Assembly: GCF_006345805.1 (NCBI RefSeq)
Contig: NC_043000.1
Location: 30,442,001 to 30,506,000 of the forward strand
Length of the DNA stretch: 64,000 nt
Reading direction: 5' to 3'
From: Octopus sinensis
Taxonomy: Eukaryota
Shown: one piece after another, positions 2,066-63,207 of the stretch
Layout of the letters: each line of letters starts with the position of its first letter
Position numbering within the stretch: the stretch's first letter is position 1
Notes under the pieces: model-generated
What the model saw: only the letters and a program-made list of their open reading frames with translations
What the model was told of the DNA's origin: nothing
The model's database searches: none
Position numbers and translations under genes: made by a program

Positions 2066-2113
<48 letters not shown>

Positions 2114-2116
<3 letters not shown>

Positions 2117-2480
2117 TTTATAATTAGGGTTCAGCAAAGATTTGCTTCACCACACACTGAAGTTTAGAAATAGCAGTCAAAAAATCTTAGCTATTCTTTC
2201 TACTTTAAAAGGGACTCCCAGAAAAGTACTTGAAAACAATCCATGCGTGGATTGTTTTCCAGTACTTTGGTTTTTTCTGGGAGTCCCTTTTAAAGTAGAA
2301 GGAATAGCTAAGATTTTTTGACTGCTATTTCTAAACTTCAGTATGTGGTGAAGCAAATCTTTGCTGAAACCTAATTATAAAGTATTACTTGAGCTTACCA
2401 TGAAATGTTCTTTTTCATGCCGAATTCTACTTGGTGAAATTATTAATTACTTCTTAATTAATTAATTTTACCCTTTGTTA
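2114..2480 (+). mobile_element. Fold-back (inverted) PLE pseudo-LTR relic between (TA)n tracts
   Basis: 2114-~2243 is the reverse complement of ~2248-2384. The right arm continues ~95 nt further. Shares the CTGCTATTTCTA / CAGTATG / CTTGGTGAAATT...TTTTACCC motifs with the HHR-bearing repeats at 8300-8473 and 59358-59554. Confidence 0.7.
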
Positions 2481-3291
2481 TTATATATATATATATATAC
2501 ACACACACATTAAACCATTTTATGAACAAACTCAGCCGTTAGCTGAGTGTTAGGGTTTCGCAGCCGCCTACTAGCAACTTTGCTTTTCTATCGTACATTG
2601 GTAAGTCACCAAACCGTTGCCCTTACAGCTTTACTGCGTTCGAAATTTATATTTATACATACATACAAACATACATACATACATACATACATACATACAT
2701 ACATACATACATACATACATACATACATACATGCATCACTTGATGTTGATGACGTTAAGAAAATGATGGTGGTCACGAAGATGGAGGTTGCTGTAATGCT
2801 GTTGGACGAAGTTCGTAAATCTCAATGCGGTTGCTGTGGTGTTCTCACTGGAACTGGCTGTGTCTGCGTGGACTGTGGCTTGACCTCGAAAGATCAGGAA
2901 TCATCACTTGACAACCGATGTCGGTGTGTTTATATATACATTTGTTTGCTTGTTATCAGTCGTAAGACACTTGTTGTTTTCACCGTTAATGCTTCTGTAT
3001 TTCATGTTTCTGTATTCCATTATTGTTTTTTGTTTTTTTTATATCTGTCCCTTTTGCTGTGCTGGTGTTCGTATGCATTCGATCCTTCTTCCAGGAAATC
3101 TACGCTTCCAGCTTAGTTTTTCTTGGCGGGCTGGCCGTGATCTAGTAATCTCAAGATTAATCAGCCGAAATTACTACGATGATCCGGTTCTTGACTGAAG
3201 ACTGAGGGGTTCGAATGTCCTGTCCATGTTTATTGTATCGTCTTCTATGAGTTATACGTTCTGTCCATGTTGTATTTTTCTACATACCTTA

Positions 3292-6666: not shown

Positions 6667-7022
6667 CACATATATATATGTATATATATGCATGTATATA
6701 TATGCATATATACATGTATATGTATATGTATATGTATGTGTGTGTGTAGAAGGTTGAAAGGAACACACGAGTAGATATGTATGGGAAAACTTTTTTCCAT
6801 ATATATATATATATATATATAAAATTATTACATTATATAAAAGGGCTTAGTAAAATAAATTACTTTGCCGCATACTGAACTCATTAGAAATAGCAGCTAA
6901 AAAAACATTTATAAAACTATTTCTAATACTTAAAGAAAACCTCTCTCATATAGTGTTTGCTCAATTCAACTCACGGAAGTATGGAGGGTAGAGACATTAA
7001 AAAATCAGATGCAAAGGTTATT

Positions 7023-7076
7023 TGAGAACGTACGTTTCAAGATTAGTCAAAACTCGACATTTCTATCATCAGCTCA
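7023..7076 (-). ncRNA. Type-I hammerhead ribozyme
   Basis: UGAG-CUGAUGA-stem II-GAA-ACGUACGU-U-CUCA; intact core, GUU cleavage triplet. Confidence 0.8.
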
Positions 7077-7582
7077 GAACTCCCTGGTTTGGATTTGAAA
7101 ACACTGAAAGTGGGAGCATACTCCTTCGGCTTCCTATCGCTTTTGAAGATCCGCTCGTAACTAACAGTGCCAACAAACCCAAATATGCAAGCGAAGAATT
7201 TCTGCTCTCCCCTTTCCACCAGCGTGGGTTAAAATCAGCAAACACTATGCTTTTTTCGGTAAAATCCGAGGCATTAAATAGAGAGAGATGAATTATAATT
7301 TCAACAATTGAGGGTAAAATTAATTAATTAATCAATTTCACCAAGTGTTCAGTATGCAAAGGGACCATTTAAGGCGAATTCAAATTATTACATTATATAA
7401 AAGGGCTTAGTAAAATAAATTACGTTGCCGCATACTGAACTCATTAGAAATAGCAGCTAAAAAAACATTTATAAAACTATTTCTAATACTTAAAGAAAAC
7501 CTCTCTCATATAGTGTTTGCTCAATTCAACTCACGGAAGTATGGGGGGTAGAGACATTAAAAAATCAGATGCAAAGGTTATT

Positions 7583-7636
7583 TGAGAACGTACGTTTCAA
7601 GATTAGTCAAAACTCGACATTTCTATCATCAGCTCA
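7583..7636 (-). ncRNA. Type-I hammerhead ribozyme
   Basis: Identical to 7023-7076. Confidence 0.8.
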
Positions 7637-8151
7637 GAACTCCCTGGTTTGGATTTGAAAACACTGAAAGTGGGAGCATACTCCTTCGGCCTCCTATCGC
7701 TTTTGAAGATCCGCTCGTAACTAACAGTGCCAACAAACCCAAATATGCAAGCGAAGAATTTCTGCTCTCCCCTTTCCACCAGCGTGGGTTAAAATCAGCA
7801 AACACTATGCTTTTTTCGGTAAAATCCGAGGCATTTAAATAATTTGAATTCGCCTTAAATGGTCCCTTTGCATACTGAACACTTGGTGAAATTGATTAAT
7901 TAATTAATTTTACCCTCAATTGTTGAAATTATAATTCATCTCTCTCTATTTAAATGCCTCGGATTTTACCGAAAAAAGCATAGTGTTTGCTGATTTTAAC
8001 CCACGCTGGTGGAAAGGGGAGAGCAGAAATTCTTCGCTTGCATATTTGGGTTTGTTGGCACTGTTAGTTACGAGCGGATCTTCAAAAGCGATAGGAGGCC
8101 GAAGGAGTATGCTCCCACTTTCAGTGTTTTCAAATCCAAACCAGGGAGTTC

Positions 8152-8205
8152 TGAGCTGATGATAGAAATGTCGAGTTTTGACTAATCTTGAAACGTACGT
8201 TCTCA
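8152..8205 (+). ncRNA. Type-I hammerhead ribozyme
   Basis: TGAG CTGATGA(8156-62) TAGAAATGTCGAGTTTTGACTAATCTT GAAA(8190-93) CGTACG TT CTCA. Confidence 0.8.
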
Positions 8206-8483
8206 AATAACCTTTGCATCTGATTTTTTAATGTCTCTACCCCCCATACTTCCGTGAGTTGAATTGAGCAAACACTATATGAGAGAGGTTTTCTTAAGTA
8301 TTAGAAATAGTTTATAAATGTTTTTTAGCTGCTATTTCTAATGAGTTCAGTATGCGGCAAAGTAATTTATTTTACTAAGCCCTTTTATATAATGTAATAA
8401 TTTGAATTCGCCTTAAATGGTCCCTTTGCATACTGAACACTTGGTGAAATTGATTAATTAATTAATTTTACCCTCAATTGTTG

Positions 8484-8519
<36 letters not shown>

Positions 8520-8713: not shown

Positions 8714-8716
<3 letters not shown>

Positions 8717-8990
8717 GGCGCATGGCTCAGTGGTTAGAGCGTCGAGCTTACGATCGTGAGGTTGTGAGGAGCTCGAATCCCAGACCGGGCTGTGTGTTGC
8801 GTTCTTGATCAAGACACTTTATTTCACGTTGCTCCAGTTCACTCAGCTGTAGAAATGAGTTCCGACGTCACGCGCGCCAAGCTGTATCGGCTCCTTTGCC
8901 TTTCCCTTGCATAACACTGGTGGTGTTTAGGGGGAAGGCCGGTATGCATGGACGACTGCTGGTCTTCCACAAACAACCTTGCCCGGACTT
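8714..8990 (+). mobile_element. tRNA-derived SINE, family A (CORE-like body)
   Basis: A-box TGGCTCAGTGG, B-box-like CTCGAATCC, then TTGATCAAGACACTTTATTTC..CTCCAGTTCACTCAGCTGTAGAAATG resembling the CORE domain. Confidence 0.8.
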
Positions 8991-13871: not shown

Positions 13872-14635
13872 TTACATAGAGAGTATTTTGCGTAGGATAT
13901 GAGCAGTTCCCATGAGCACTATCTTTTGAACTTCTGCCATTTTTGGGTTCCTGGTATCTGAGTTAGGTAGCTATCAGCCCCTTTTGCTATCATTCCCAGG
14001 GCACCTATGACAACAGGTATTGTTTTAGTCTTCAGCTTCCACATTTTGCTGATTTCTATTTCAAGATCTTTATATTTGCTCAGTTTTTGGTAGGTCCTGA
14101 CAGATACGTTTATATCGATTGGGACAGTCATATCAATGAGGAGGCATGTTCTTTGTTTGAAGTCTTTCAATATGATGTCTGGCCTATTTGCATCTATCTT
14201 CCTGTCAGTTTGAATGGTGAAGTTCCAGAGGAGTGAGATGTGGTCATTTTCAAGCACTGGGGGTGGTTTGTGTTCCCACCAGTTTTTTTCATGGGGCAAA
14301 TCCAGGTTTTTACAGATTACCCAGTGAATATATTGTGCAGCTCTATCGTGCCTGTTGAGATACTCTGTAGGCGCTAGAAGACTGCACTTGGAGACCACAT
14401 GGTCAATGGTTTCATTTTGTTGCTTGCATACACGACACGTTGGACTGCTTCTGATCTTTAATATGTTGGCCTGGTAGTTTCTTGTTGGTAGGCATTGATC
14501 TTGAGCTGCTATGATAAACCCCTCTGTTTCAGATTTTAAGCCAGAGGCCATTAGCCATTGATGGGTCAGGGCTTTGTCGATATCTGCATTATTCGCTCTC
14601 TTTGGGTATTTGCCTAGAGAGGTTTTTCTTGCCAT
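13872..14635 (-). pseudogene. Zinc-knuckle + RLE endonuclease segment of the R4/Dong ORF
   Basis: AAQDQCLPTRNY, CCHC knuckle, RHD and PD..D motifs. Confidence 0.9.
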
Positions 14636-15413
14636 TTATTATTCAGAATATCTAAGGCCGCAGTTTTGGCACGGGTTTTCATGCGCCTAGCTTTTTCTGT
14701 GCTTGTTTCTTGTATGTCTATCTCTAATTCCGAAATTGGCTGTATTCGGAATTCACTTAGATATTCCTTTGCTTGTTTTGTGACTGAGTATGATGCTTTC
14801 TTGTTTTCATGTTTTGAGACAAGTTTAACATCCAGTTCTCAGAGTTTTTCAGGTAGGTGTCTAGGCCAATTGTAGCAATCTTCATTGTTATTGCCAGTTG
14901 TAAAAGACAACGGCCTCCCACTTTTTCTTGGCAGATAGAGTCGTTCTGTATCTGCCTTAGGGTGGTGCATTCTATGCATTGTCAACAGTTTCCTTATTAT
15001 TCTGTTGAGCTGACATATTTCAGTAATTGACCTGTTAACAATATTGAAACTGTAAGTCACGACTGGTATAGCTAATGCATTGATCGCTTCGATCCTAATT
15101 CTTGCATTCAGCTCTGTCTTGAGTATTGCTCTCACTCTTCGATAGCATTCTCTCCTGATCCTTTCCTTCATCTCTGAATGCCTTATTCCGTTCCCTTCAA
15201 TTACCCCTAGGTACTTGTAGCTCTCCGCTGGGTCTAGTTCTTTTATGACATTCTGTTGGTCAAGGTTAACGTTAGATGTTTCTGTCATTTTTCCTTTGAT
15301 AAAGGTAGCCTTTGCACATTTATCGAGGCCGAATTGCATTCTGATGTCGTCACTGAATTGTTTGACTATCGCTAGTAAGCCCTTGAGTTGTTGATCATTT
15401 TTTGCAAAAAGCT

Positions 15414-17051
15414 TTAAATCATCCATGTAAACGAGATGATTATATTTTTATCAAACATTTTATACCCGTACTGCGCGTCATTGAGCAGCTTTGAGAGAGG
15501 TATTAAGGATAAACAAAAGAGGAGTGGTGACAGTGAGTCACCCTGGAAAATGCCACACGAAATTTTTACATCACCAGCATTTAGGGATTCACTGTCACTG
15601 TTCAGAGTTAGTGTGGTTCTCCATGATCTCATACTTACAGTCAAGAAGTTTCGCAGAGTTGGTGCTATCTTATACATTTCAAGGCATTTCCTAATCCAGC
15701 TATGTGGTAGGCTATCAAAAGCCTTTTTATAGTCTATCCAGGCTATTGATAAGTTTTTGTGTCGTTTGTGACAATCTTCTAAGATCATCTTATTGATGAG
15801 TAGTTGGTCTTTACAGCCGTAGGATCCACGTTTACATCCTTTCTGTTCATTAGGGAATATGCTGCTGTCTGTTAAAAAACTATAGGTATATTCCGTCAGG
15901 ACAGATGTTAGAGTTTTGTACATAGTTGTTAAGCAGGTTATGGGTCTATAGTTTTTTGGTTCATTGTTTTCTTCACTTTTTGGAAGCAGGAATGTTAACC
16001 CATTAACTAGCCAAGGAGGCATCCTACTAGGGTGTTGCAGAACATCATTGTACAGTTCTGTTAGCAGTTCATGGCTCTCTGGGAAGGCATTCAGCCAGAA
16101 GTTAGGAATTTTATCCTTTCCTGGAGACTTCCATTTGCTTGACCTCCTGAGAGCAGATCTTATATCTTCTACCTTGACACCCTCCCACTTTTGCTCTTCT
16201 AAGGGGTCCAGTTCTGTAGATATTCTGTCAATCCAGGGGGCCTTTTCGTTGTGTGTTTTTTCTTCTGCCCAGATTTTATTCCAAAATCTCTGCACTTCTT
16301 CTTTTGATGGTACAGACCCTGCAGTAAACGCTGTTTTTCCTATCTTCCTGTAAAAATTCTTGGTGTTATTTTTGAACATGTTGTTGTCCTTGAAAAATCT
16401 AACACGCTTTTCATACCTCGCTATGCGGGTAGCTTTGGCAGATACCTTTTGTTTGATGGTTTCTATGGTGGCATCAATATCAAGTATAGTTTTCATATTG
16501 TATTTTTTCAGTAATTTTGGGGTTTTTGTAGGTTTGGTAGTCTTGTGAGCCTTAAGGTTTTTCAAATATTCAATGTCAGATCTAAATACTTTAATTTGTT
16601 GTTGCAGACGCTCTTGCCAAGAAGGCTTTTTGTGGGACTGTTGCCGTTTTCTAATCTTTACACCACATAGGATCGTTGAGATTTTCGCGGATGCATAGTA
16701 TAGGTGGTTGAGGTTTGTGATATCAACATCATTAACTGAAATTATATCCTTAAGTGCAAGCCGGATTTTACCAATTATTTTCATGTTTTGGTTAGAGTTG
16801 CGGATTTTAGGAAGTGTATCACGCTCATCCATGCTGGTTTCTTTAATTTTCAGCCATTCAATCATGATTTGATTTTTTAGCTCATGTAGTTCTGTTGGGT
16901 CAATATTTGTGTGACTTTCTTTATCTATTTGATGCTCATCTGTCTTAGTGTTTATGATTGGTTCAGGGCGTATTTCACTTTGCCTATCACTTATACTAAC
17001 TCTTTCAATCCTCTCTTCGTTTTTATCCGCCCTGGGCTGGTCTATAATCAT
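15414..17051 (-). pseudogene. Reverse transcriptase segment of the R4/Dong ORF
   Basis: 545-aa ORF with RT motifs 0-4; frameshift just before YMDD. Confidence 0.9.
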
Positions 17052-18599
17052 TTCTCTGTATTATCTTCTCTAGCTGCAGCTTCGTTCGTTATTTTATCCG
17101 ATATTGCTTGTCTAACCTGATCAATCTCTACTTCAGTCAGTAATTTCTTTTATAATGTTTCTTCTAACATTGGCAAGCTTGTTACTGTCTATGTAGGGTC
17201 TTACTTCAGGGTGTTTCTGTCTCCAGTTTAAGTATGCTTGTACAGTGCTAGACTCCTGTGGGGAAATATATGGCATGGTAGAAGGCCTCGAGAACTTCTT
17301 TATTATCTTCCCTAGACCATTTTTCCTTCTTTTTCTTTTGATTATTTGGTGATGAGCATGGATGGCCATCTGTTGGAATATTCCGGTTGTGGGGTTCGTC
17401 CAGCTCCTGTGTGTTGGGAAGATTTGATCCAGTAACTGATTTTTCAATCAGGATTTGGTTCAATTTTCGGGTACGTGGTCTTTTGTAATCCGCGCAATGA
17501 CCAATGCGGTTTATTGTTTGATTTGTTGACCTTGAAGCATGACGAGCATCCATTCTTATATTAGGAGATGGATCTGTCAGTTTAGGGTTCACTACATGTA
17601 AGCATTGCTCATAGCGCCGCTTCTTAAGACTAGCAGATCTATATTCGTCTGTATTTTTTTTTGTTGATAGTTTTATCTCCGGACTTTTTTTTTTTCCTTT
17701 CCTCCTTTCCTCCTCTTCCTTTCTTCAAGGCTTACTGTGTCTGTATTAGTTCGAAATAATGAGAATAAAATACGGAGAAGGAAACGAAAAGAAAGGGAAA
17801 AAGACGGGATCTGTCAGTTATTATGTTATTACTATCATCTTCCCACCATCACCATCATCAGCAACATCACCATCACCATCATCATCTTCAATGTGTAGCC
17901 ACAGCCACCATCAACACTCCATTGTGTTGGAGAATGGGTGGTTAAAGAATTCATGTTCTTTGGGTCTATAAATAGCCACGGTAGATGGTGGAGACAAAGG
18001 ACGTTAATGGTCAGTAAAAGGTCAAACCTGTTTACGTTTATTTATTATTTATTTTTTTTTTTTCCCCGTTCTCTTTTCTTCTTCACCACATGCATATGTA
18101 TATGTATATATATGTATATTCACTCACACATATTATCTGATGTTTTCGTCGAAGATTTTTTTTTTTTTTTTTTAAATAACTTTCTGAGTTCAATGTTATG
18201 TATATATTTTTAAATTTCTGAATTCAGTTGTATGTATATAGTAGTAGGTGCTTAATTCCATAACTTTTTATCGTGCATTTAATTGTGTTGTTACAATAAA
18301 AGGTAATTTAAGGCAATTTTACACATTCTTATAGTCATGAGAGACGACTAAATGTAAATGTTCACACAGAATTGGAGATATTTATGTTTCTAATTTTTCT
18401 TGTTAGGTGTACGTTTGTATGAGCTGTAGATATGTAAGTTTTTTTTTTTTTTTACTTATTTTGAGGGTAATTCAAATTACTTACAGAAAACAGTAGATCT
18501 TCCAGTTTTCTACAGTTGACCTGCTGGGTTCGCTGTTGCCAGTTCAGAGCATCGTAAAAATACGTCCATCTCTGTCACGTCCAGCCGCCTTCTTCTTCT

Positions 18600-24929: not shown

Positions 24930-25505
24930 GCGGCGAGCTAGCAGAATCGTTAGCACGCCGGGCCAAATGCTAAACGGTATTTCGTCTGCATTACGTTGTG
25001 AGTTCAAATTCCGCCGAGGTCGACTTTGCCTTTCATTCTTTCGGGGTCGATAAACTAAGTACCAGTTACGCACTGGGGTCGATGTAATCGACTTAATACC
25101 TATGTCTGTCCTTGTTTGTCCCCTCTGTATTTAGCCCCTTGTGGGTAATAAAGAAATAGGTATTTCGTCTGCCGTTACGTTCTGAGTACAATGTACGCCG
25201 AGGTCGGCGTAATTTGCCTTTCATCCTTTCGGGGTCGATTAAATAAGTACCAGTTACGCACTGGGGTCGATATAATCGACTTAATCCGTTTGTCTGTCCT
25301 TGTTTGTCCTCTCTGTCTTTAGCTCCTTGTGGGTAGTAAAGAAATAGGTATTTCGTCTGTCGCTATGTTCTGAGGTCGACTTTACTTTTCATCCTTTCAG
25401 TGTCGATTATATAAGTACCAGTTAAGCACTGGGGTTGATGTAATCGACTTAATCCCTTGTTTGTCCCCTCTATTTTCATCCCCTTGTGGGCAATAAAGAA
25501 ATAAA
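24930..25505 (+). mobile_element. SINE family B with triplicated body
   Basis: Head GCGGCGAGCTAGCAGAATCGTTAG followed by three ~185-bp units starting GGTATTTCGTCTG (24976, 25159, 25347). Confidence 0.85.
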
Positions 25506-28484: not shown

Positions 28485-29065
28485 TTTTCTACTCCAGGCA
28501 CAAGGCCCGAAATTCTTAGGGAGGGGGCCAGTCGATTAGATCGATCTCATTACGCAACTAGTACTTAATTTATCGACCTCGAAAGGATGCAAGGTAAAGT
28601 AGACCTCGGTGGAATTTGAACTCAGAACGTAGCGGCAGACGAAATACCTATTTCTTTATTACCCACAAGGGGCTAAACACAGAGAGGACAAACAAGGACA
28701 GACATACGTATTAAGTCGATTATATCGACCCCAGTGCGTAGCTGGTACTTATTTAATCGACCCCGAAAGAATGAAAGGCAAAATCGACCTCGGCGGAATT
28801 TGAACTCACAATGTAACGGCAGACGAAATACCTATTTCTTTCTTGCCCACAAGGTGCTAAACATAGAGGGGACAAACAAGGACAGACAAAGGGATTAAGT
28901 CGATTATATCGGCCCCAGTGCGTAACTGGTACTTAATTTATCGATCTCGGAAGGATGAAAGGCAAAGTCGACCTCGGCGGAATTTGAACTCAGAACGCAG
29001 CGGCGGACGAAATACCGCAAAGCATTTCGCCCGACGTGTTAACGTTTCTGCCAGCTCTCCGTCCT
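28485..29065 (-). mobile_element. SINE family B with triplicated body
   Basis: Reverse complement of the 24930-25505 architecture. Confidence 0.85.
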
Positions 29066-33739: not shown

Positions 33740-34890
33740 TTCGGGTTTCGAAACTACTGTACAGTCAAACATATTCTTTTTCATATTCCACTGTCCAAAA
33801 GCCTATGGAGACCACTTGGAATGACCATTTCTATTTTTCGGTTATAAGCTCTATTCGTCTCCTTATTTAACGTCACCCAAGGAATTGACATTTTTACAAT
33901 TAAGACTATTCTGCAGAGACCTGAAATCGGAAGGAGCAATATCTAGTGAATATGGAGGGTGGGGTAACACATCCCAGCCGAGCTGCAGCAATTTTTGTCT
34001 AGTTCCCAAAGAAACGTGCGGTCTTGATTATCATGTTGGAAACGAACACCCTTCCTGTTGGCCAATTTTGAACGTTTCACTTGAATTGCTGCTTTTAACT
34101 CATCCAGTTGTGTGCTGTATTTCTCAGAATTAATTGCCTGGTTACTTGAGAGAAGCTCATAGTACAGAGTTCCTTTCCAATCCCACCAGACACAAAGCAA
34201 GACATTTTAAGGGTGAAGACCCGCTTACTCCAGGTTCACTTTCTGTGAACATTTCTCATCACCTGTCACAATTTGCTTTTAGAAAAGTGGTGTTTTCATT
34301 CCGATTATAAAGCGAGTCGGATGGAAATGCGATTCAATAGGTTCTTCTCACTCAACTCATGTGATACCCAAACATCGTAGCGATTTGTGTACCCAAACTT
34401 TACCAGGTGCTCATGAACGACGGATCTTGATAGGTTGAGGCTTTCTGCAAACTCTCGGGTTGTGCAATGTAGGTTATTCTCAGTTAATGACTTGATTTGG
34501 TCATCATCTGTAATGGATGGTCTGTCAGATCGCTCTTTATCAATAAGGCTACAATTTCCACCTCGGAACCTTGAGAACCACTTCCGTACAGTTCTTTCGG
34601 ATAAAGAAACATCACCGTAAACTGCGCATATTTCTTTGGTTGCTTGTGAGGCATTTTTCCCTTTACGGAAAAAGAAAAGCATCAAGTGCCAAAAGTGTAC
34701 TTTCTTATCTCCCGTTTTAAAGGGTTACAGAATTAGCACAGGTTATAGGAACATAAACCTTCTTCCTCGAAAAGATAGCTTAAACTGTGCTCTAAATGGA
34801 GGTGTAGTAAAATCCTATTTTACGGACTCACCCATGTAAGTCGAAAGGTAAGCTACTATAAATCGGCACAAACTTTACGGAGAACCCAAT
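33740..34890 (-). mobile_element. Decayed mariner transposon
   Basis: HTH ORF 34305-34685 with WVSHELSEKN (WVPHEL motif); 33943-34200 MLCVWWDWKG..QHDN; YSLDIAPSDF motif downstream. 5' TIR-like TATTGGGTTCTCCGTAAAG at 34890. Confidence 0.88.
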
Positions 34891-39908: not shown

Positions 39909-40158
39909 CATACATACATATATACATACATACATACATATATACATACATACATATACATCGGTGTGCGTGTGTGTTATTTATGTGTATATGTGAGGAT
40001 GGGTTATTTGCAGTTCGTCGAAAAAGAACGATGGAATATATTCTATCGTTCTCTTTTGACGAACTGCAAGTAACCCCCAGGCTATCAACAAGGAATAAGT
40101 AATGCGGTAGATTTGTTCGACCAAAACTTTGAAGAGAGTGCAGCAAAATAGTCGCCGT

Positions 40159-45743: not shown

Positions 45744-45788
<45 letters not shown>

Positions 45789-45800
45789 TATATATATATA

Positions 45801-47315
45801 AGCAAGCTGAAAGAGGGAATAATATGCCCAATACATAAAGGGGGAAGTAGAACAGATGCCAAAAACTATAGGCCTATCTCTCTGACTTCACACATCAGCA
45901 AAGTCATGGAACGCATAGTCAGAAAGAAACTAATTGCATTCCTTGAGGAAAATAACTTGCTGAGTGATACCCAGCATTGTTTTCGACCAGGTAGGAGCTG
46001 CCTGACCCAGCTCTTACAACATTATGACTGGGTGTTGAGGCAGTTACTCAACAAATCAAATGTGGACGTAATCTACCTTGATTTTGCAAAAGCTTTTGAC
46101 AAGGTGGATCATGGTATGATATGCCACAAACTGTGTGACCTCGGCATAGCTGGAAAACTTGGAGTGTGGTTACATGACTTCCTGAAAGATAGGAGTCAGG
46201 CAGTAGTGGTTAACGGAGCCACCTCTATGACCACACACATAGTGAGCGGTGTTCCACAGGGCACTGTCTTGGGACCACTGCTTTTTATAGTGGCCCTCTC
46301 AGATATGCCCTCAAATGCCCGGTTAACCACTCTGGCCAGCTATGCAGACGATACGAAAGTCTCGCAGAAAATACAGAACCCCAGCGATGTTGCACACCTG
46401 CAGCAGGAGTTGGACTCAATCTACAGATGGGCTGAGGATAATAATATGCAGTTTAATGGTGAAAAATTCCAGGCCCTGCGCTACCGGCATCCAAAACTGA
46501 ATATTAAACTTACAGGATACACCGGTCCACAGGGAATTTCAATCCCAGAGCCTAAGTCTGTGAGGGACCTGGGTATCGACATGAGTGATGATACCTCTTT
46601 CCAAGTGCACATTACCAGGATGGCGACAAAGTGCAGGCGACTGGCTGGGTGGATCCTAAGAAAATTCAGAACCAGAGATAAGGAAACCAAGATGGTCCTC
46701 TGGCGACATTTGTCCTCAGCCGCCTGGATTACTGCTCACAGCTATGGTCACCCACCAGTGTAAAATTAACAGCGGACCTTGAAGAAATCCAGAGAAGATT
46801 CACAAAGAAGATCGTCTCTTTGCAACAGCTCAGCTACTGGGAAAGGTTGAAACAGCTAAGACTCTACTCCCTGGAGAGAAGACGGGAGAGGTATGCAGTA
46901 ATATATTTCTGGAAGATCCTGGAAGGAATTGTACCAAATTTTGGCATTGTAAGCTACACTAATGCTAGAACGAGTCGACACTGCATAGTGCCAAAGATCC
47001 CAGCAATGCCATCACGCTTCAGGACCAGCTTCTGCAACAGCCTGGGTTTCAAGGGCCCACAGCTTTTTAATATTTTCCCAAAGAGTCTGAGGAACTTGCA
47101 CAAAGTAGATGTAGCGGTTTTTAAATCAAAGCTGGACATCTTCCTATCGAGAGTCCCAGATGAACGTACCTCACGGCAAGAGGTGCAAATGAGAGTAGCT
47201 ATATCAAACTCCATTCTTCACCAAGTGCCACATATTAGACGAGGTTCTTCGCAATAACAGTGTAGCACAAAACGGCGGTGCATCAGCATGGCCGCAGCTC
47301 TGAGCTGAAACTAGA
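45801..47315 (+). mobile_element. 5'-truncated CR1-clade LINE (RT and C-terminus)
   Basis: NYRPISLTSHISKVMERIV, QHCFRPGRSC, DFAKAFDKVDH, GVPQGTVLGP, YADD, SYWERLKQLRLYSLERRRER; frameshift near 46710; stem-loop 3' tail. Confidence 0.92.
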
Positions 47316-51061: not shown

Positions 51062-51149
51062 ATGCAGCTGAGGATTGCTCTGTATTTAAATTGATGTAAT
51101 GACTGCATTGTTCAATTAAATGGAGTTGCTTGAAACGATCGTACAGCAT
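51062..51149 (+). ncRNA. Type-I hammerhead with extended stem II (diverged; family of 57231-57322)
   Basis: ATGCAG-CTGAGGA-...-GAA-ACGATCGT-A-CAGCAT. Downstream CTTGTTGCCTATTTTGATT matches the reverse complement of 57200-57218. Confidence 0.6.
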
Positions 51150-51797
51150 TACCTCTAGATATCCTTGTTGCCTATTTTGATTTTAATCAACTTATTTTGA
51201 AATTGTATGGATAATAACGTACTAAATACTGGTACCTCAACTTAAGTACCTAATTCATTTGAATCTAAATTTTTTATGTATATATTTTTTATGTATATAT
51301 AAGCCTGTCTTATATGTAAATTTATATATCTATGTGTGTGTGTGTGTTCGGGCAATCTTTATATCAAACTTAACGTGGGTGTTTTGTTAGAACTTCAAAT
51401 ACTGTGTTGTTTACCATGAGAGGACCTCTCGTATAGATGCATGGTACACAAAAGCAGTTATGTTTATATCGTCGTAGACAAGAATCGTCTGCTAAGGTCA
51501 CCGGAAGAACAATATCGTGTGATTTTGATCTCTCGGCTCTTTGATGGCAGATGTCCGGTGCCGGTGATCTTGCTGGCTATTTACGACAGCAGTGCATTAA
51601 AAATACTTAAATTCAATATATTATTGACAATGAGATTCGGCTAATAAAGCATGGTAAATGTTTTTAATTTTCATTTCCTTCGAATTTGCTCTTAAATGTG
51701 GTTTGGACTTTTTCACTGTTCTTTCTAGTATGTTAAGCAGCCTGTTAGTGACTTGCCTCTGTGTGTATAAATATATATGTACGTATATATATATACT

Positions 51798-57199: not shown

Positions 57200-58330
57200 A
57201 ATCAAAATAAGCAACAAGAATGACTCCGGTAATTTGGTACGATCGTTTCGTACTACATCATTTTATTAAATGTTGTAAGTAGTACAACAGATTTAAGACG
57301 CTGAGTACTCATCAGCCAATTATAGAGGTTTTCCAATAATACAAACATTTTCAAATCAAGTGGCAACATTATAGAGAAGGTAGATATACTGACAAAGATG
57401 TGGATTTAAATTTTAAGAACATATGAGGTAGTGAAGTCCTTCCACTGACTGACTAAGATATGGTTGTTCCTGACTGCTGTAAGGTTAGAAGCAAGAAAGA
57501 TTTTTTAATTGTAGAAATGGAGGTTTCAGAACTCCATAAAAGGAATTCATGTTGAAGACAGCAATTGCCACTAATAAATCCCAATTACTACTATTTGATG
57601 AGAGAAACTAGGTCAATGTCAAATGGTCCTAATCCCATTCACAGTGAGTGTAATTTAGAGAAAAAAGGGGAAAAAACCTATCACTTATTATAATGAGTAG
57701 GCATAGTACTTTTTAACTGGGAGAAAGCCTTATTAATTTTAAAGCTAGATTAATTTTAGAAAAAAATTTAAATTTCAAGTTTGCAGTGAAGATTTTTCAG
57801 TCATCTATGAATGTTAAATTGAAAGCTAGTATAGTATATTTCTTATTATTTGATTATAAAGAATTAAAATTTCAAAAATATAGGAATACTCACAAAATTA
57901 TTATTTAAAGTATTTAAACGTTCGGGTTGTGCAATGTATACAAGATAATCCCAACTCCAGACGGTTATTGAACAGATTTGTATTACTCTGATGTTTTAAA
58001 ATTTCATAATTTTCCATAGAACAAAGTTGACAACAATCCCTACAATTTTTATAATTTTGCGCCCTTCTAACTATATCCCATTTTAGGTTGAATTCTATAT
58101 TATTTGTTTTTAGTTCCCAAATTTTGCTAGATAGTGTTGTGCAACCTGCCTTGTGTTTGAGCCTAAAAGAGGAAAAATGATTGTTAAGACGTCTTTTAAG
58201 ATCCACCGAACAACCGAAATAAAGAAAGCTATTGCTAGAAGTTATTTAGTATTTATAAATTACGTTTTGGGCCGAACAACGACCAGATACCGGACATTTT
58301 GATCTAATCCTACAATTACAACTGGGGGGA
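57200..58330 (-). mobile_element. 5'-truncated Penelope-like element: GIY-YIG relic + 3' pseudo-LTR
   Basis: Minus translation CNCRIRSKCPVSGRC..VIYKY*..LYFG..DLKRRLNNHFSSF..IWELK..CQLCSMENYEI..NNRLEL. HHR in the 3' region; (TA)n flanks. Confidence 0.85.
57231..57322 (-). ncRNA. Type-I hammerhead ribozyme, intact core, long stem II
   Basis: AAUUGG-CUGAUGA-GUACU..(UUAAAU..UGUUGUA/UACAACA UUUAA)..AGUAC-GAA-ACGAUCGU-A-CCAAAUU. Confidence 0.85.
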
Positions 58331-58828: not shown

Positions 58829-59094
58829 TGTATGTATGTATGTATGTATGTATGTATTTCGTTTTTATTATTTTGACTCTTTAAGGAAAGACGGCGTTCG
58901 GTGATGCGCTAAAAGTTGTTTGTGATTCTATTAATTTCATTATAATTATCTGATATGATAAGTACCTTTAGCTTCTACTTGTTATTTCATACAGCAGCCT
59001 GGCTTTGATGGTGAAATAGTGGATGTTATCTAAGGTACTCTTAAAATATATCATGATATATATATATCTGTGGGTGTGTATATATATACACGAG

Positions 59095-59560
59095 TAATTT
59101 CATATTTTCCCTCCAAGACTACCATGTGCGTTACAAGATAGTACCGCAGAAAAAAAACTGTAGCTTGCTATCAGGGAGTGAAATTATCAGGGAGGGAAAT
59201 AATCAGGGAGTGAATAACCGAAATATTATGCCGATGAAGGAAATGAATTTTTATAATTCTAATCCCGAAACGCGTACATAATTAATCGTAGACTGTTTGA
59301 TTTCGGTTTTTTTTCTTCTTTTTGCCTATGTGTCTGTTGAGTCATATTTGTAGTTAAAAGGAATTAGCTGTCTTTGGCTGCTATTTCTAAATTGTCGGTA
59401 TGTGGTGAAGCAACTTGTTGCTATATCCTTAATTATATTTATACTTGTATATATAAAAAAAATATTTTTGTATAAGTTTTTACCGAATATGGTTCTTTTC
59501 CATACCGAAACTACTTGGTAAAATTCATTAATAAATAAATTATAATTCTTTACCCTATAT
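59095..59560 (+). mobile_element. PLE-like pseudo-LTR relic with HHR and structured 3' domain
   Basis: 3x ATCAGGGAG(T/G)GAA repeats (59170-59216), HHR at 59225-59282, 3' domain homologous to 2297-2472 and 8300-8473; ends in (TA)n. Confidence 0.7.
59225..59282 (+). ncRNA. Type-I hammerhead (U4C variant)
   Basis: ATTATG-CCGATGA-AGGA..GAATT/AATTC..TCCC-GAA-ACGCGT-A-CATAAT. Confidence 0.65.
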
Positions 59561-59630
59561 CTATAATGTATATATATGCATATATATATATTTATATATA
59601 TACTTTATTTAAAGCAGCAGAAAATTCAAC

Positions 59631-59677
59631 AAAATCTGTTACTCTGAGTTTCTCGTTGCCGTTCATCAGACAGTTTT
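59631..59677 (-). ncRNA. Minimal type-I hammerhead
   Basis: Inverted copy of 63034-63080. Confidence 0.7.
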
Positions 59678-60865
59678 TGTTAGAATGAAACCGATATATC
59701 AATTCAATCCAGACTCTTACAAACGCTACACCTTTAAAAAATGGACTTGTTTGATTGGCTCTTTAGAAATAACGGTCAATCTTCGAGCGATAAACAAAAA
59801 ATTGAGCTCAAAAATATATATGCAAATATATATAAAAAAAATTATAAAAATTATAAAATTCGAGGAAAAACCTTACATTGAATAAAATACATATTGACGT
59901 TAATGAAGGAAATATAATTAATACATGGAAATTAAAATGCATTATAAATATTACACTGCAATACATATTCATATTAAAGTGTACATATATATTTATCAAC
60001 ATTCACAGAAGGATGCGTGCAAACGCCATACATATACAGACGTATAAATATAAATATAAAATATACACACAAATGCATGCATACATATGTATACGCAATC
60101 TATCTCGCACGCAAGTTAAAATCATGGATGCTAATGTAGCGTTCCTTATTTACGGAGCAAAGCTTAAGACATAAGTAAGTGAGGGGGACGTAAAGTTGTA
60201 TGCACCAGTATCAGTTAGAGAAAAAAACGAAAGAAAGGAAGAGAGAGAGAAAGGAACGAAGGGGGAAGGAAAAAGGAAAAAGGAGGGGTGGGGGAAAAAA
60301 CGAAATAAGAAAAATTATGTATACAAGCTGTGTAACCACGTTATTGACATATATAGAGAGACAAGTATACAAACACACAAGTTCAAATTGATACATACAC
60401 ATACAGTCGTGTATGTGTGTGCTTAAGCACAAACATACGCTCACTTACACATACACAGAGACGCATGCTTACAAATACAAATCCATGGCTATACACATAT
60501 TTACATCAAAATTCTAATTTTTGACAACATTGATTTTTTTAAAAAATGGTGAGTGCAATAATGAAAAATATAAGAAAGACATATAAAATATAACACCCTA
60601 TTTTGGATCATCTATAAATTAAAAATTAAAGTAATCCTATACAATACAATAACATGAAATAAACAAAGACGAAGGTTTTCCTAAGGTACATGTAGAAATA
60701 TAAACAAAATAAACAAAATATATGCATGAGACTTTGCTATACAGAATGAAATATGCATAGCGCGAAACAAATCTAACGTCGCGTTTACATACTAGTCCAA
60801 GAGTCAAAATCAAAATTTCAAAAATCAAAAATACAAAATATATACTTTATCCATATGGTATATAT

Positions 60866-61570
60866 TTATATTTGACATTTTAATTTGGTTGCGTGTCTAA
60901 ATAAGTTCATCAGCTCACTTCTTTGATTCAAAGAATTATTGTCTTTGAATATACTATACAGTTTCTCTAATAGGCAAAGATTGCATTTAAAATTATTCCT
61001 GTGTGCTCCATGCCTGTATGGTGCCGCTCTGTCCAGAATGCTCCATGTCACGTTGAAAGTTGGGGTTTCCTTTTCTTTTAGTTCCCAGACATATTTTGCT
61101 AGGCTGGTCCTCTTCCTATTCTCTGGGTATCTAAATGAATTTTTATGCGAATAAAATCGTGTTTTAAACGAATTTTCTGAAGCCCCTGTATATGTCTTGT
61201 ATTCCGATGAGCCTTCTATTTGTACCTTGGCTCTATAAACTACTCCTTTTACTAGATATTTCCCTTCTAACGGACAGGAGTTTTCATTTTTGAAATTGCA
61301 TTTCTTAATGGGCTCGGCACCATGCTTAATTTCAATCAGATTCCTACTATGCTGGCTAATGTAAGAGGCGAAATTTCTGCAACAAGAATAGCTAACCTTC
61401 AAGGTTCTTCTATTAAATATCCTATAGAATTTATGGCCCTGCTTAAACTACTTAGAGACTAATCTCCAAAATTCCTTACCTATATTAGTCTTTACGGCCA
61501 AATTGAAAGCCGGGTTGAACCACAAAACTTTCCTGGTCCTAGTTCTTCGTGCAGCATTATTATCAGCATT
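60866..61570 (-). pseudogene. PLE thumb/linker + GIY-YIG endonuclease
   Basis: RKVLWFNPAFN..KTNIG (one in-frame stop) then KVSYSC, CNF-x5-C, VVY..YTG, KTRFYSH, VWELK, CNLCLLEK, LNQRSEL. Confidence 0.88.
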
Positions 61571-62136
61571 AAGCTGGCTAACAACTCGAATAAGATCTTC
61601 GTTAATTCTGATAAGACAAGGAACTTATATGCACTTGATAAGGACGTTTATAAGCGCCTGATTTCGAATAGTGTCACAGATACATACAAAAAAGATAACT
61701 CAAATATATACAAAGAGGTGAACTTAGAAGCAAGAGGAATATATAACGATCTTAAGATTAGCGATAGGATTGAATATCTTTCACCACGACCAGCTTTTAT
61801 TACTCTAAAAGACCATAAAGCCAATTTTAATAGAAACCCCAAATGTAGATTGATAAATCCGGCTAAAACTGAGATAGGAATTATTAGCAAAAATATTTTG
61901 GACCGTATTTTAGCTAAGTTAGATAGTGAAGTAGACTTGAGAATTTGGAAGAATAGTAAGTCAGTCATAGAGTGGTTTAAAGGTATTAGCTATAAGAATA
62001 ATTGCAGTTTTACACAATTCGAAATTATTGACTTTTACCCGTCAATATCTAGGACGTTACTCCTAAGGGCATTGGACTTCGCCAAGCAGTATGTCAGCAT
62101 CGATAGCTCGGAAATTGATATTATTTTTCATTATCG
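61571..62136 (+). pseudogene. PLE reverse transcriptase N-terminal fragment
   Basis: In frame with ORF 61718: SDKTRNLY, AFITLKDHK, PKCRLINP, QFEIIDFYPSI (motif A region). Truncated by fusion to the pseudo-LTR. Confidence 0.85.
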
Positions 62137-63033
62137 TATATTTTTCATTATTGCACTCACCATTTTTTTTAAAAATCAATGTTGTCAAAAATTAGAATTT
62201 TGATGTAAATATGTGTATAGCCATGGATTTGTATTTGTAAGCATGCGTCTCTGTGTATGTGTAAGTGAGCGTATGCTTGTGCTTAAGCACACACATACAC
62301 GACTGTATGTGTATGTATCAATTTGAACTTGTGTGTTTGAATACTTGTCTCTCTATATATGTCAATAACGTGGTTACACAGCTTGTATACATAATTTTTC
62401 TTATTTCGTTTTTTCCCCCACCCCTCCTTTTTCTTTTTTCCTTCCCCTTCTTCGTTCCTTCCTCTCTCTCTTTCTTTCTTTCGTTTTTTTCTCTAACTGA
62501 TACTGGTGCATACAACTTTACGTCCCCCTCACTTACTTATGTCTTAAGCTTTGCTCCGTAAATAAGGAACGCTACATTAGCATCCATGATTTTAACTTGC
62601 GTGCGAGATAGATTGCGTATACATATGTATGCATGCATTTGTGTGTATATTTTATATTTATATTTATACGTCTGTATATGTATGGTGTTTGCACGCATCC
62701 TTCTGTGTATGTTGATAAATATATATGTACACTTTAATATGAATATGTATTGCAGTGTAATATTTATAATGCATTTTAATTTCCATGTATTAATTATATT
62801 TCCTTCATTAATGTCAATATGTATTTTATTCAATGTAAGGTTTTTCCTCGAATTTTATAATTTTTATAATTTTTTTTATATATATTTACATATATATTTT
62901 TGAGCTCTTTTTTTTGTTTATCGCTCGAAGATTGACCGTTATTTCTAAAGGGCCAATCAAACAAGTCCATTTTTTAAAGGTGTAGCGTTTGTAAGAGTCT
63001 GGATTGAATTGATATATCGGTTTCATTCTAACA

Positions 63034-63080
63034 AAAACTGTCTGATGAACGGCAACGAGAAACTCAGAGTAACAGATTTT
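63034..63080 (+). ncRNA. Minimal type-I hammerhead
   Basis: AAAACTGT-CTGATGA-ACG GCAA CGA-GAAA-CTC A GAG-TA-ACAGATTTT; stem II closing pair is mismatched. Confidence 0.7.
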
Positions 63081-63207
63081 GTTGAATTTTCTGCTGCTTT
63101 AAATAAAGCATATTACTCTACCACTGGTATTTGAGTACTCTTTTTTTCCACCTTGTTTCACATTTATGTGTCTACTCCGGTATATATATATATATATATA
63201 TATATAC

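Follow-up and report, generated by a model that had tools for sequence, protein, structure and literature searches.

The reverse transcriptases (RTs) of Penelope-like elements (PLEs) are the sister group of telomerase RT. In LINE/SINE pairs and in R2, a structured 3' cis element is recognized by the RT in trans, an arrangement that we likewise propose here for a Penelope-like RT, and in LINE-1 twin priming two primers give rise to an inversion. Statements about published papers, here and below, concern their accessible text. A tail at a single end of the insertion is a known Penelope signature (PMC8557442, PMC3846280), and in PMC11167929 this tail is the stretch between two RT start sites mapped in vitro. 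Non-LTR retrozymes (PMC7229834; 10.64898/2026.07.22.740005), with which the elements described here have these features in common, are built of tandem units that code for no protein and each carry one type I hammerhead; they are low in GC, are predicted to form a self-paired circle and co-occur with PLEs. How PLE RTs choose their RNA, and what mobilizes animal retrozymes, are open questions according to PMC11167929, PMC7229834 and 10.64898/2026.07.22.740005.

We analyzed a window of 64,000 nt from Octopus sinensis (contig NC_043000.1, positions 30,442,001 to 30,506,000, forward strand), in which an earlier note had pointed out a multi-helix RNA domain in three copies, A, B and C, here delimited as 8296..8474 (A), 2294-2474 (B) and 59349-59556 (C), A on the plus strand and B and C in the plus arms of their insertions. 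These copies belong to one family of non-coding mobile elements with a unit of ~570 nt and a hammerhead motif. Following hammerhead-pattern matches through the genome, we found at least 13 subfamilies in the clade, with non-coding, tandem, hammerhead-bearing units of 551-598 nt. A, B and C are homologous along the full unit (52-60% identity) and lie on the deepest branches of the subfamily tree; 11 consensus units share 52-93% identity across their entire length. The copies had been described as three diverged families, and their sequences are indeed diverged, but homology over the whole unit within one clade rules out three unrelated families. Because of this homology, the helix order shared by A, B and C reflects descent, and a covariation test was therefore required.

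Searching the genome turned up numerous tandem and inverted arrays with copies of A, B and C, the copy numbers being lower bounds, and 170 loci yielded 38 distinct hammerhead-to-hammerhead units of 551-592 nt. The units are joined head to tail, have no internal body, protein coding or LTR, and the sequence is ~73% AT; no ORF of at least 100 aa overlaps A, B or C in the window. The earlier note had assigned the domain to PLEs. We reassign it to non-coding retrozymes: at no searched locus did a same-strand ORF with RT and GIY-YIG lie upstream of the domain within the unit, as expected of an autonomous PLE, and 0/3 autonomous Penelope-like families examined carried the domain. Judged on testable features, the carriers fit non-LTR retrozymes. 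Their units of 551-598 nt compare with 170-400 nt in PMC7229834 and 51-972 in 10.64898/2026.07.22.740005 and, unlike in the published elements, the hammerhead has an internal loop in its long stem II and insertions are inverted with one tail. The accessible text of these two sources contains no conserved start-site domain and names no mobilizing family from fused insertions.

Copy A carries a type I hammerhead motif at 8156..8201 on the plus strand, with a predicted cut after 8201, and further copies lie at 7587-7632 and 7027-7072 on the minus strand. Its long stem II holds a conserved internal loop, and the stems fold with the core unpaired. Exact hammerhead patterns gave 1267 and a disjoint 1385 genome matches (at least 2,652), compared with 0 and 1 in reversed controls. 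In this variant, stem II measures 24-70 nt and has, in most subfamilies, a conserved asymmetric internal loop, which may be a tertiary contact or a protein site. The long-stem hammerhead at 8156-8201 was missed by the Rfam scan, and the octopus Hydra hammerhead in the supplement of PMC8557442, as far as accessible, differs from that of the retrozymes. When a metagenome was scanned with the hammerhead pattern, none of 57 loci had the domain (best E 1.6), and the matches were taken as chance. As a side observation, core position 4 is C, not U, in the hammerhead of copy C (59231-59276, plus arm); the same holds for subfamily C and a variant of the autonomous element Hyd1 (window 59231, 35016) and for the autonomous Hyd2 (pLTR of L427), and elements with this substitution have all multiplied.

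The subfamily A insertion (6822..8491) is head-to-head, with a minus arm running 7841->6822 and a plus arm at 7838-8491, and both of its ends lie on (TA)n. The minus arm comprises 1.8 units of 558-560 nt and ends at the first of two copy-end sites, T1, and the plus arm ends at the second, T2. In the subfamily B insertion (2113..2489), the minus arm (2246->2113) likewise ends at T1 and the plus arm (2244-2489) at T2. This insertion is truncated from the 5' side, 3' of the hammerhead, and has no hammerhead in the window, as had been noted before; longer B copies elsewhere do have one. The subfamily C insertion (59083..59568) has a plus arm at 59219-59568, which ends at T2; its inverted piece is short (59189->59083) and stops at neither T1 nor T2. 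Adjoining it but separate is a Hyd1 insertion (59600..63180) with inverted pLTRs, one T1 end, one tail end and RT and GIY-YIG remnants at 60866-62203; this family is a candidate for the mobilizing partner. Two broken regions (13919-17060, minus; 45783-47257, plus) are by motif presumably LINE-type RTs, and a fragment at 34305-34724 (minus) is presumably of a mariner-like transposase. A tRNA-like SINE, recognized by eye, lies directly downstream of A (8715-8960). Tandem repeats of 184-188 bp (24976-25374 and 28530-29016) are dispersed over many loci and adjoin two retrozyme 5' joints (L133, L493).

All helices of the domain named in the earlier note were found in A, B and C at the positions it gave. 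In copy A (plus strand), H1 pairs 8303-8311 with 8331-8339; its 3' strand is invariant, and variation in its 5' strand is nearly all G-U. The long-range stem H2 (8345-8355 with 8428-8438) spans T1 and keeps a core of 8 pairs in 27/27 sequences. The inner hairpin H3 (8356..8381) has a purine-rich internal loop and both-side changes at three pairs. H4 is a small hairpin at 8410..8421, and what had been called a conserved linker is conserved but is really its 3' strand. The terminal hairpin H5 (8443..8472), a near-perfect palindrome, starts and ends with the same motifs as H3. An additional helix, P1, encloses H1 and H2 in a junction. An alternative pairing between the 5' strands of H3 and H4 was dropped, being accounted for by wobble in H4. 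The decayed window copies show an A-C mismatch in the long stem of B, which is absent from the B consensus, and, in C, damage to the outer pair of H3.

Folds of single sequences were compared with shuffles and gave z=-7.25 for A (0/200), z=-3.71 for B (0/200) and z=-2.91 for C (2/200). We then tabulated 44 pairs in P1, H1, H2, H3, H4 and H5 over 10 subfamily consensuses, excluding subfamily B2 (4 copies, noisy consensus); subfamilies A2 and F are represented by 2 full copies each. Pairing was kept in 415/440 cells, and both sides had changed at 9/44 pairs, or at 8 if a doubtful P1 pair overlapping H2 in A is left out. Under a null in which the same number of changes is placed on the tree, 52.1 ± 6.9 unpaired cells are expected compared with the 25 observed (0/3000 as low), and 3.2 compensated pairs compared with 8-9 (P=0.001); covariation in the deeper alignment is significant. 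The consensus structure computed by alifold reached -33.7 kcal/mol, whereas column-shuffled alignments with the structure re-derived averaged -3.2 (0/200 as good). A held-out test, confined to the helices named by the earlier note, considered states present only in seven subfamilies that it had not seen: pairing was kept in 10/18, compared with 68/298 neutral single-copy changes (P=0.004).

Among 27 copies, both sides had changed at 8/42 pairs, and 1/500 shuffles did as well in a procedure that leans towards structure. In 30 further distinct copies, 96.6% of cells were paired in an alignment fitted to the model, and H3 showed the series C-G, U-G, U-A. G-U states outnumbered A-C states (15 vs 4, P=0.01), favoring the hammerhead strand as claimed earlier; alifold gave -33.7 on the plus strand and -17.1 on the minus strand, and in the single-consensus z-scores of F and K the minus strand was as low as the plus strand. 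Rfam yielded three chance matches in 7930-8490 (E 1.8-2.7, far below gathering scores), and a scan of the whole window gave simple-repeat noise and no motif for the domain among the matches listed (best 150 of 177). Among these same best 150 of 177, the sole low-E match outside dinucleotide repeat families was a weak one to mir-981 (39999-40078, minus; 29.1 bits, E=0.0002, gathering 51). The tree null, the held-out test and the shuffled alignments agree in supporting a genuine fold of the domain under selection, the G-U excess places it on the hammerhead strand, and the proposal of a selected RNA fold is supported.

The domain is embedded in a larger predicted structure. Circular folds of 10 subfamilies predict one common branched-rod architecture, with the plus strand better than the minus strand by 28-72 kcal/mol. 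The rod is closed by pairing of sequence upstream of H1 with sequence downstream of the terminal hairpin H5, which is possible only in multimeric, monomeric or circular RNA. Outside the domain the rod covaries more, with both-side changes at 60/109 pairs, and covariation alone is therefore not special to the domain. What sets the domain apart is sequence: it is the part of the unit with the highest sequence conservation, at an identity of 0.70 vs 0.50 in the rods and with 78/189 invariant columns vs 31/316. Sequence kept in the domain and little kept in the rods suggests sequence-specific recognition of the domain.

We mapped where copies end. T1 (8392..8403, plus strand) lies 7-17 nt 3' of H3, and T2 (8480..8491, plus strand) about 7-17 nt 3' of H5. 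The tail between them measures 91 nt in A, with a range of 91-123 nt over the subfamilies. At 507 loci we counted 438 distinct 3' ends at (TA)n, of which 204 were at T1, 220 at T2 and 14 elsewhere; in loci chosen by hammerhead alone, 186/192 ends were at T1 or T2. Most units hold 3-13 further TATA/ATAT sites, which are almost never used, and end positions scatter over about 10 nt in a subfamily-dependent manner. Inverted insertions had one T1 and one T2 end in 79/82 cases, and in 36/38 in hammerhead-picked loci. Manual review gave 80/83, the exceptions being L099, L134 and L160; L287 is T2 (with a deletion) plus T1 by manual review and T1+T1 by script, and L160 is T2+T2, outside the strict rule. 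Both arms came from the same subfamily in 63/63 inverted insertions, and arms of one insertion shared 1.63 variants per 100 sites vs 0.37 for arms of different insertions (4.4-fold), a similarity that could come partly from conversion or assembly polishing.

The insertions have Penelope-type architecture, in which one copy is inverted and 5'-truncated and a single end has the tail. Because the one-end tail is a Penelope signature and the tail in vitro is the stretch between RT starts, we read T1 and T2 as putative RT starts 1 and 2, and by this analogy the stretch from T1 to T2 would be this element's Penelope tail, of ~100 nt. The earlier note had placed the domain at the 3' end, which holds for DNA copies but not for the predicted hammerhead-to-hammerhead RNA, in which it is internal. 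Contigs of three presumed-RNA runs covered 30/30 unit bins and two of them span T2 into the next unit, as do genomic tandems, and these contigs carry no weight as evidence of expression. The same note had suggested an RT-binding or priming element; nearly all copy ends do map to two sites in the domain, which lends this indirect support, and binding itself is presumed.

We sought a partner that could supply the RT. The autonomous elements nearby are of the Hydra clade by motif (RWK, DKT, CxCX5C linker, CxxC, CxH, C-terminal endonuclease, (TA)n target), a set that is complete in Hyd2 and has F for the linker's second C in Hyd1; on this motif definition, Hydra replaced Naiad or Neptune as the clade. 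Their inverted insertions also combine one T1 and one tail end, in 14/14 for Hyd1 and 5/5 for Hyd2. The tails of Hyd1 and Hyd2 (70-110 nt) are unrelated to the retrozyme domain, which was absent from the three autonomous families followed (5+40 Hyd1 loci, 38 Hyd2 loci, 70 third-clade loci). On autonomous tails the covariance model scored at best 26.7 bits (E=0.001), compared with 98-192 bits for true copies, and the unit HMM and the domain model detected no homology in Hyd1, Hyd2 and third-clade pLTRs. Open frames of 717 aa in Hyd2 (L427, L428, L429) and 727-766 aa in Hyd1 (L288-L292) were found, and many identically scoring endonuclease matches suggest recent Hyd2 activity. In the Hyd2 pLTR (L427), the strands preceding T1 and T2 are alike; they may compete for the hammerhead stem I partner and form a possible switch. 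The third Hydra-like clade (window 57200-58245 and 51068-51290; L357-L396) has an asparagine-rich insert, a long-stem hammerhead, a 110-nt tail of three hairpins and a short U-rich motif before both ends.

Three direct fusions join a retrozyme to Hyd1 on the same strand, with Hyd1 5'-truncated and neither a TA run nor upstream Hyd1 sequence. L037 (its duplicate, L048, was left out of the count) is joined at T2, with a microhomology of 4 nt, L293 is joined at T1, and L524 has an internal joint, the one such case among 26 non-inversion 5' joints at 40 loci picked by Hyd1. The joints of L037 and L293 fall in the same site class as the start of the Hyd1 arm, and the whole insertion keeps one T1 and one T2 end. 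No such direct joint with the tRNA-derived SINE was seen in 28 loci, and two 5' joints touched the 184-bp satellite. The count leaves out L270 (G and a piece near a third-clade UTR) and the tail-to-tail neighbors L422 and L496. These three events, few as they are, would most simply be explained if the Hyd1 RT jumped between templates. A 70-nt retrozyme piece also lies at a Hyd2 inversion joint (L296:5310-5570; L397) beside a same-subfamily copy, which could have served as DNA template.

Could the conserved helices be no more than shared ancestry? All subfamilies have a common ancestor, the sequence is ~73% AT, and helices might arise by chance in such DNA during neutral descent; with the tree null, the held-out test and the shuffled alignments all rejecting it, and neutral copies breaking pairs in 230/298 changes, this account is scarcely credible. 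The multi-branch fold, its conserved unpaired residues and the fixed end positions would also suit a second ribozyme, an idea that the earlier note had entertained, which would here cleave itself to leave RNA 3' ends at T1 or T2. Such cleavage is at odds with tandem arrays that reach 10 or more units with T1 and T2 uncut within, and with ends that scatter ~10 nt and vary by subfamily; Rfam detected no family below E=1.8 in 7930-8490, although it also missed the long-stem hammerhead there. We regard a second ribozyme as very improbable.

More weight attaches to an explanation in which the fold is only part of a compact rod that protects or circularizes the RNA, with T1 and T2 set by short motifs and unpaired AU-rich stretches. 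In its favor, covariation is strong over the whole unit, retrozyme circles are described as highly self-paired (PMC7229834), a short U-rich motif stands before both ends in the third autonomous clade, and two copies inserted in spite of deletions through H4 and the H2 3' strand (L160:1243-1904, in both arms, with T2+T2 ends; L287:1463-1978, with T2 and T1 ends). In contrast, sequence conservation in the domain is far above that in the rods, the remaining AU-rich sites are almost never used, both ends lie at a similar distance from related hairpins and L160, both of whose arms lack H4 and half of H2, breaks the T1+T2 rule (one case); on balance this explanation is unlikely. Less likely still is a signal acting as DNA, in which the endonuclease recognizes or trims hairpins and the tail stems from resolution rather than from a pair of RT starts. 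In PMC8557442, resolution by the endonuclease is given as the "most likely" origin of the tail, PMC11167929 cites recognition of Penelope DNA by the endonuclease in a tail-dependent manner, and H5 is a near-perfect palindrome; however, the G-U excess and strand asymmetry indicate a single strand of hammerhead polarity, the fusions fall on T1 and T2 of the second template, and direct mapping in another clade links both tail ends to RT starts (PMC11167929).

We therefore favor, with a probability of about 0.6, the reading that the domain is a covarying retrozyme RNA that acts as recognition and start-site signal for a Hydra-clade Penelope-like RT in trans. As in other retrozymes, transcripts of tandem arrays would be cleaved by their hammerheads to ~570-nt monomers, which would circularize. 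The predicted fold of the covarying RNA is a branched rod that has the domain at one of its ends, where a Hydra RT-endonuclease would bind, cutting both strands of a (TA)n tract. The two DNA ends would prime cDNA at T1 and T2, the sites at which copies end, each ~10 nt 3' of a related hairpin. One start per site, likely on the same RNA, would give the observed head-to-head insertion with a single-end tail, and copying round the circle or along a multimer would give tandem units. Both presumed starts lie at TA-like letters, unlike the homology-free start reported in PMC11167929. A point against recognition in trans is that Hyd1, Hyd2 and the third clade lack the domain, so that shared recognition is unaccounted for; a related family as yet unseen may be its true source.

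More tentatively, and with distinctly less confidence, we speculate that the domain is a two-socket landing pad, in which H2 and P1 keep H3 and H5 side by side, each of these two hairpins docks one subunit of a dimeric Penelope-like RT, and both cut strands are primed at fixed sites from one circular RNA. If true, this would be programmed twin priming and would explain the tail and inverted structure of Penelope-like insertions generally; it would also be a structured RT anchor beside the template, in a group of RTs that is linked to telomerase by ancestry as its sister. The action of a Penelope-like RT on retrozyme RNA becomes directly testable in vitro: a 180-nt RNA with covariation-backed structure, two mapped sites of presumed start and variants from more than 10 subfamilies is at hand, as are a strict one-of-each end rule, fusions naming a partner family and open candidate RT frames of 717-766 aa in the same genome.

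Compared with LINE/SINE pairs, no 3' sequence common to retrozyme and partner was found, and compared with LINE-1 twin priming, the octopus retrozyme starts at fixed neighboring sites and its arms overlap in sequence. With Poseidon from Anolis, whose pLTR has a tail and an AC-rich stem loop (PMC11167929), it has in common two 3' termini, a single-end tail, an internal start close to a stem loop that lies 3' of the hammerhead, and extension of both DNA strands. It differs in a tail of 91-123 nt in a non-coding element, vs 30-40 within an ORF in Poseidon (PMC11167929), in its five-helix covarying domain and in AU-rich starts with TA-like letters matching the target. With Hydra-clade PLEs (PMC8557442) it has in common (TA)n targeting, a hammerhead and inverted insertions that combine a T1 end with a tail end, and direct fusions link it to Hyd1; unlike them, it encodes nothing, and its domain is absent from the three autonomous families examined. 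The literature contained no description of the domain, of a counted one-of-each rule or of retrozyme-Hydra fusions, although Repbase, subscription papers and preprint supplements may hold the repeats; within their accessible text, PMC4209133 and PMC11722881 cover hammerheads only, and the domain is absent. Non-LTR retrozymes and the single-end Penelope tail were already known; new here are the start-site domain, the one-of-each end rule with counts, and the retrozyme-Hyd1 fusions.
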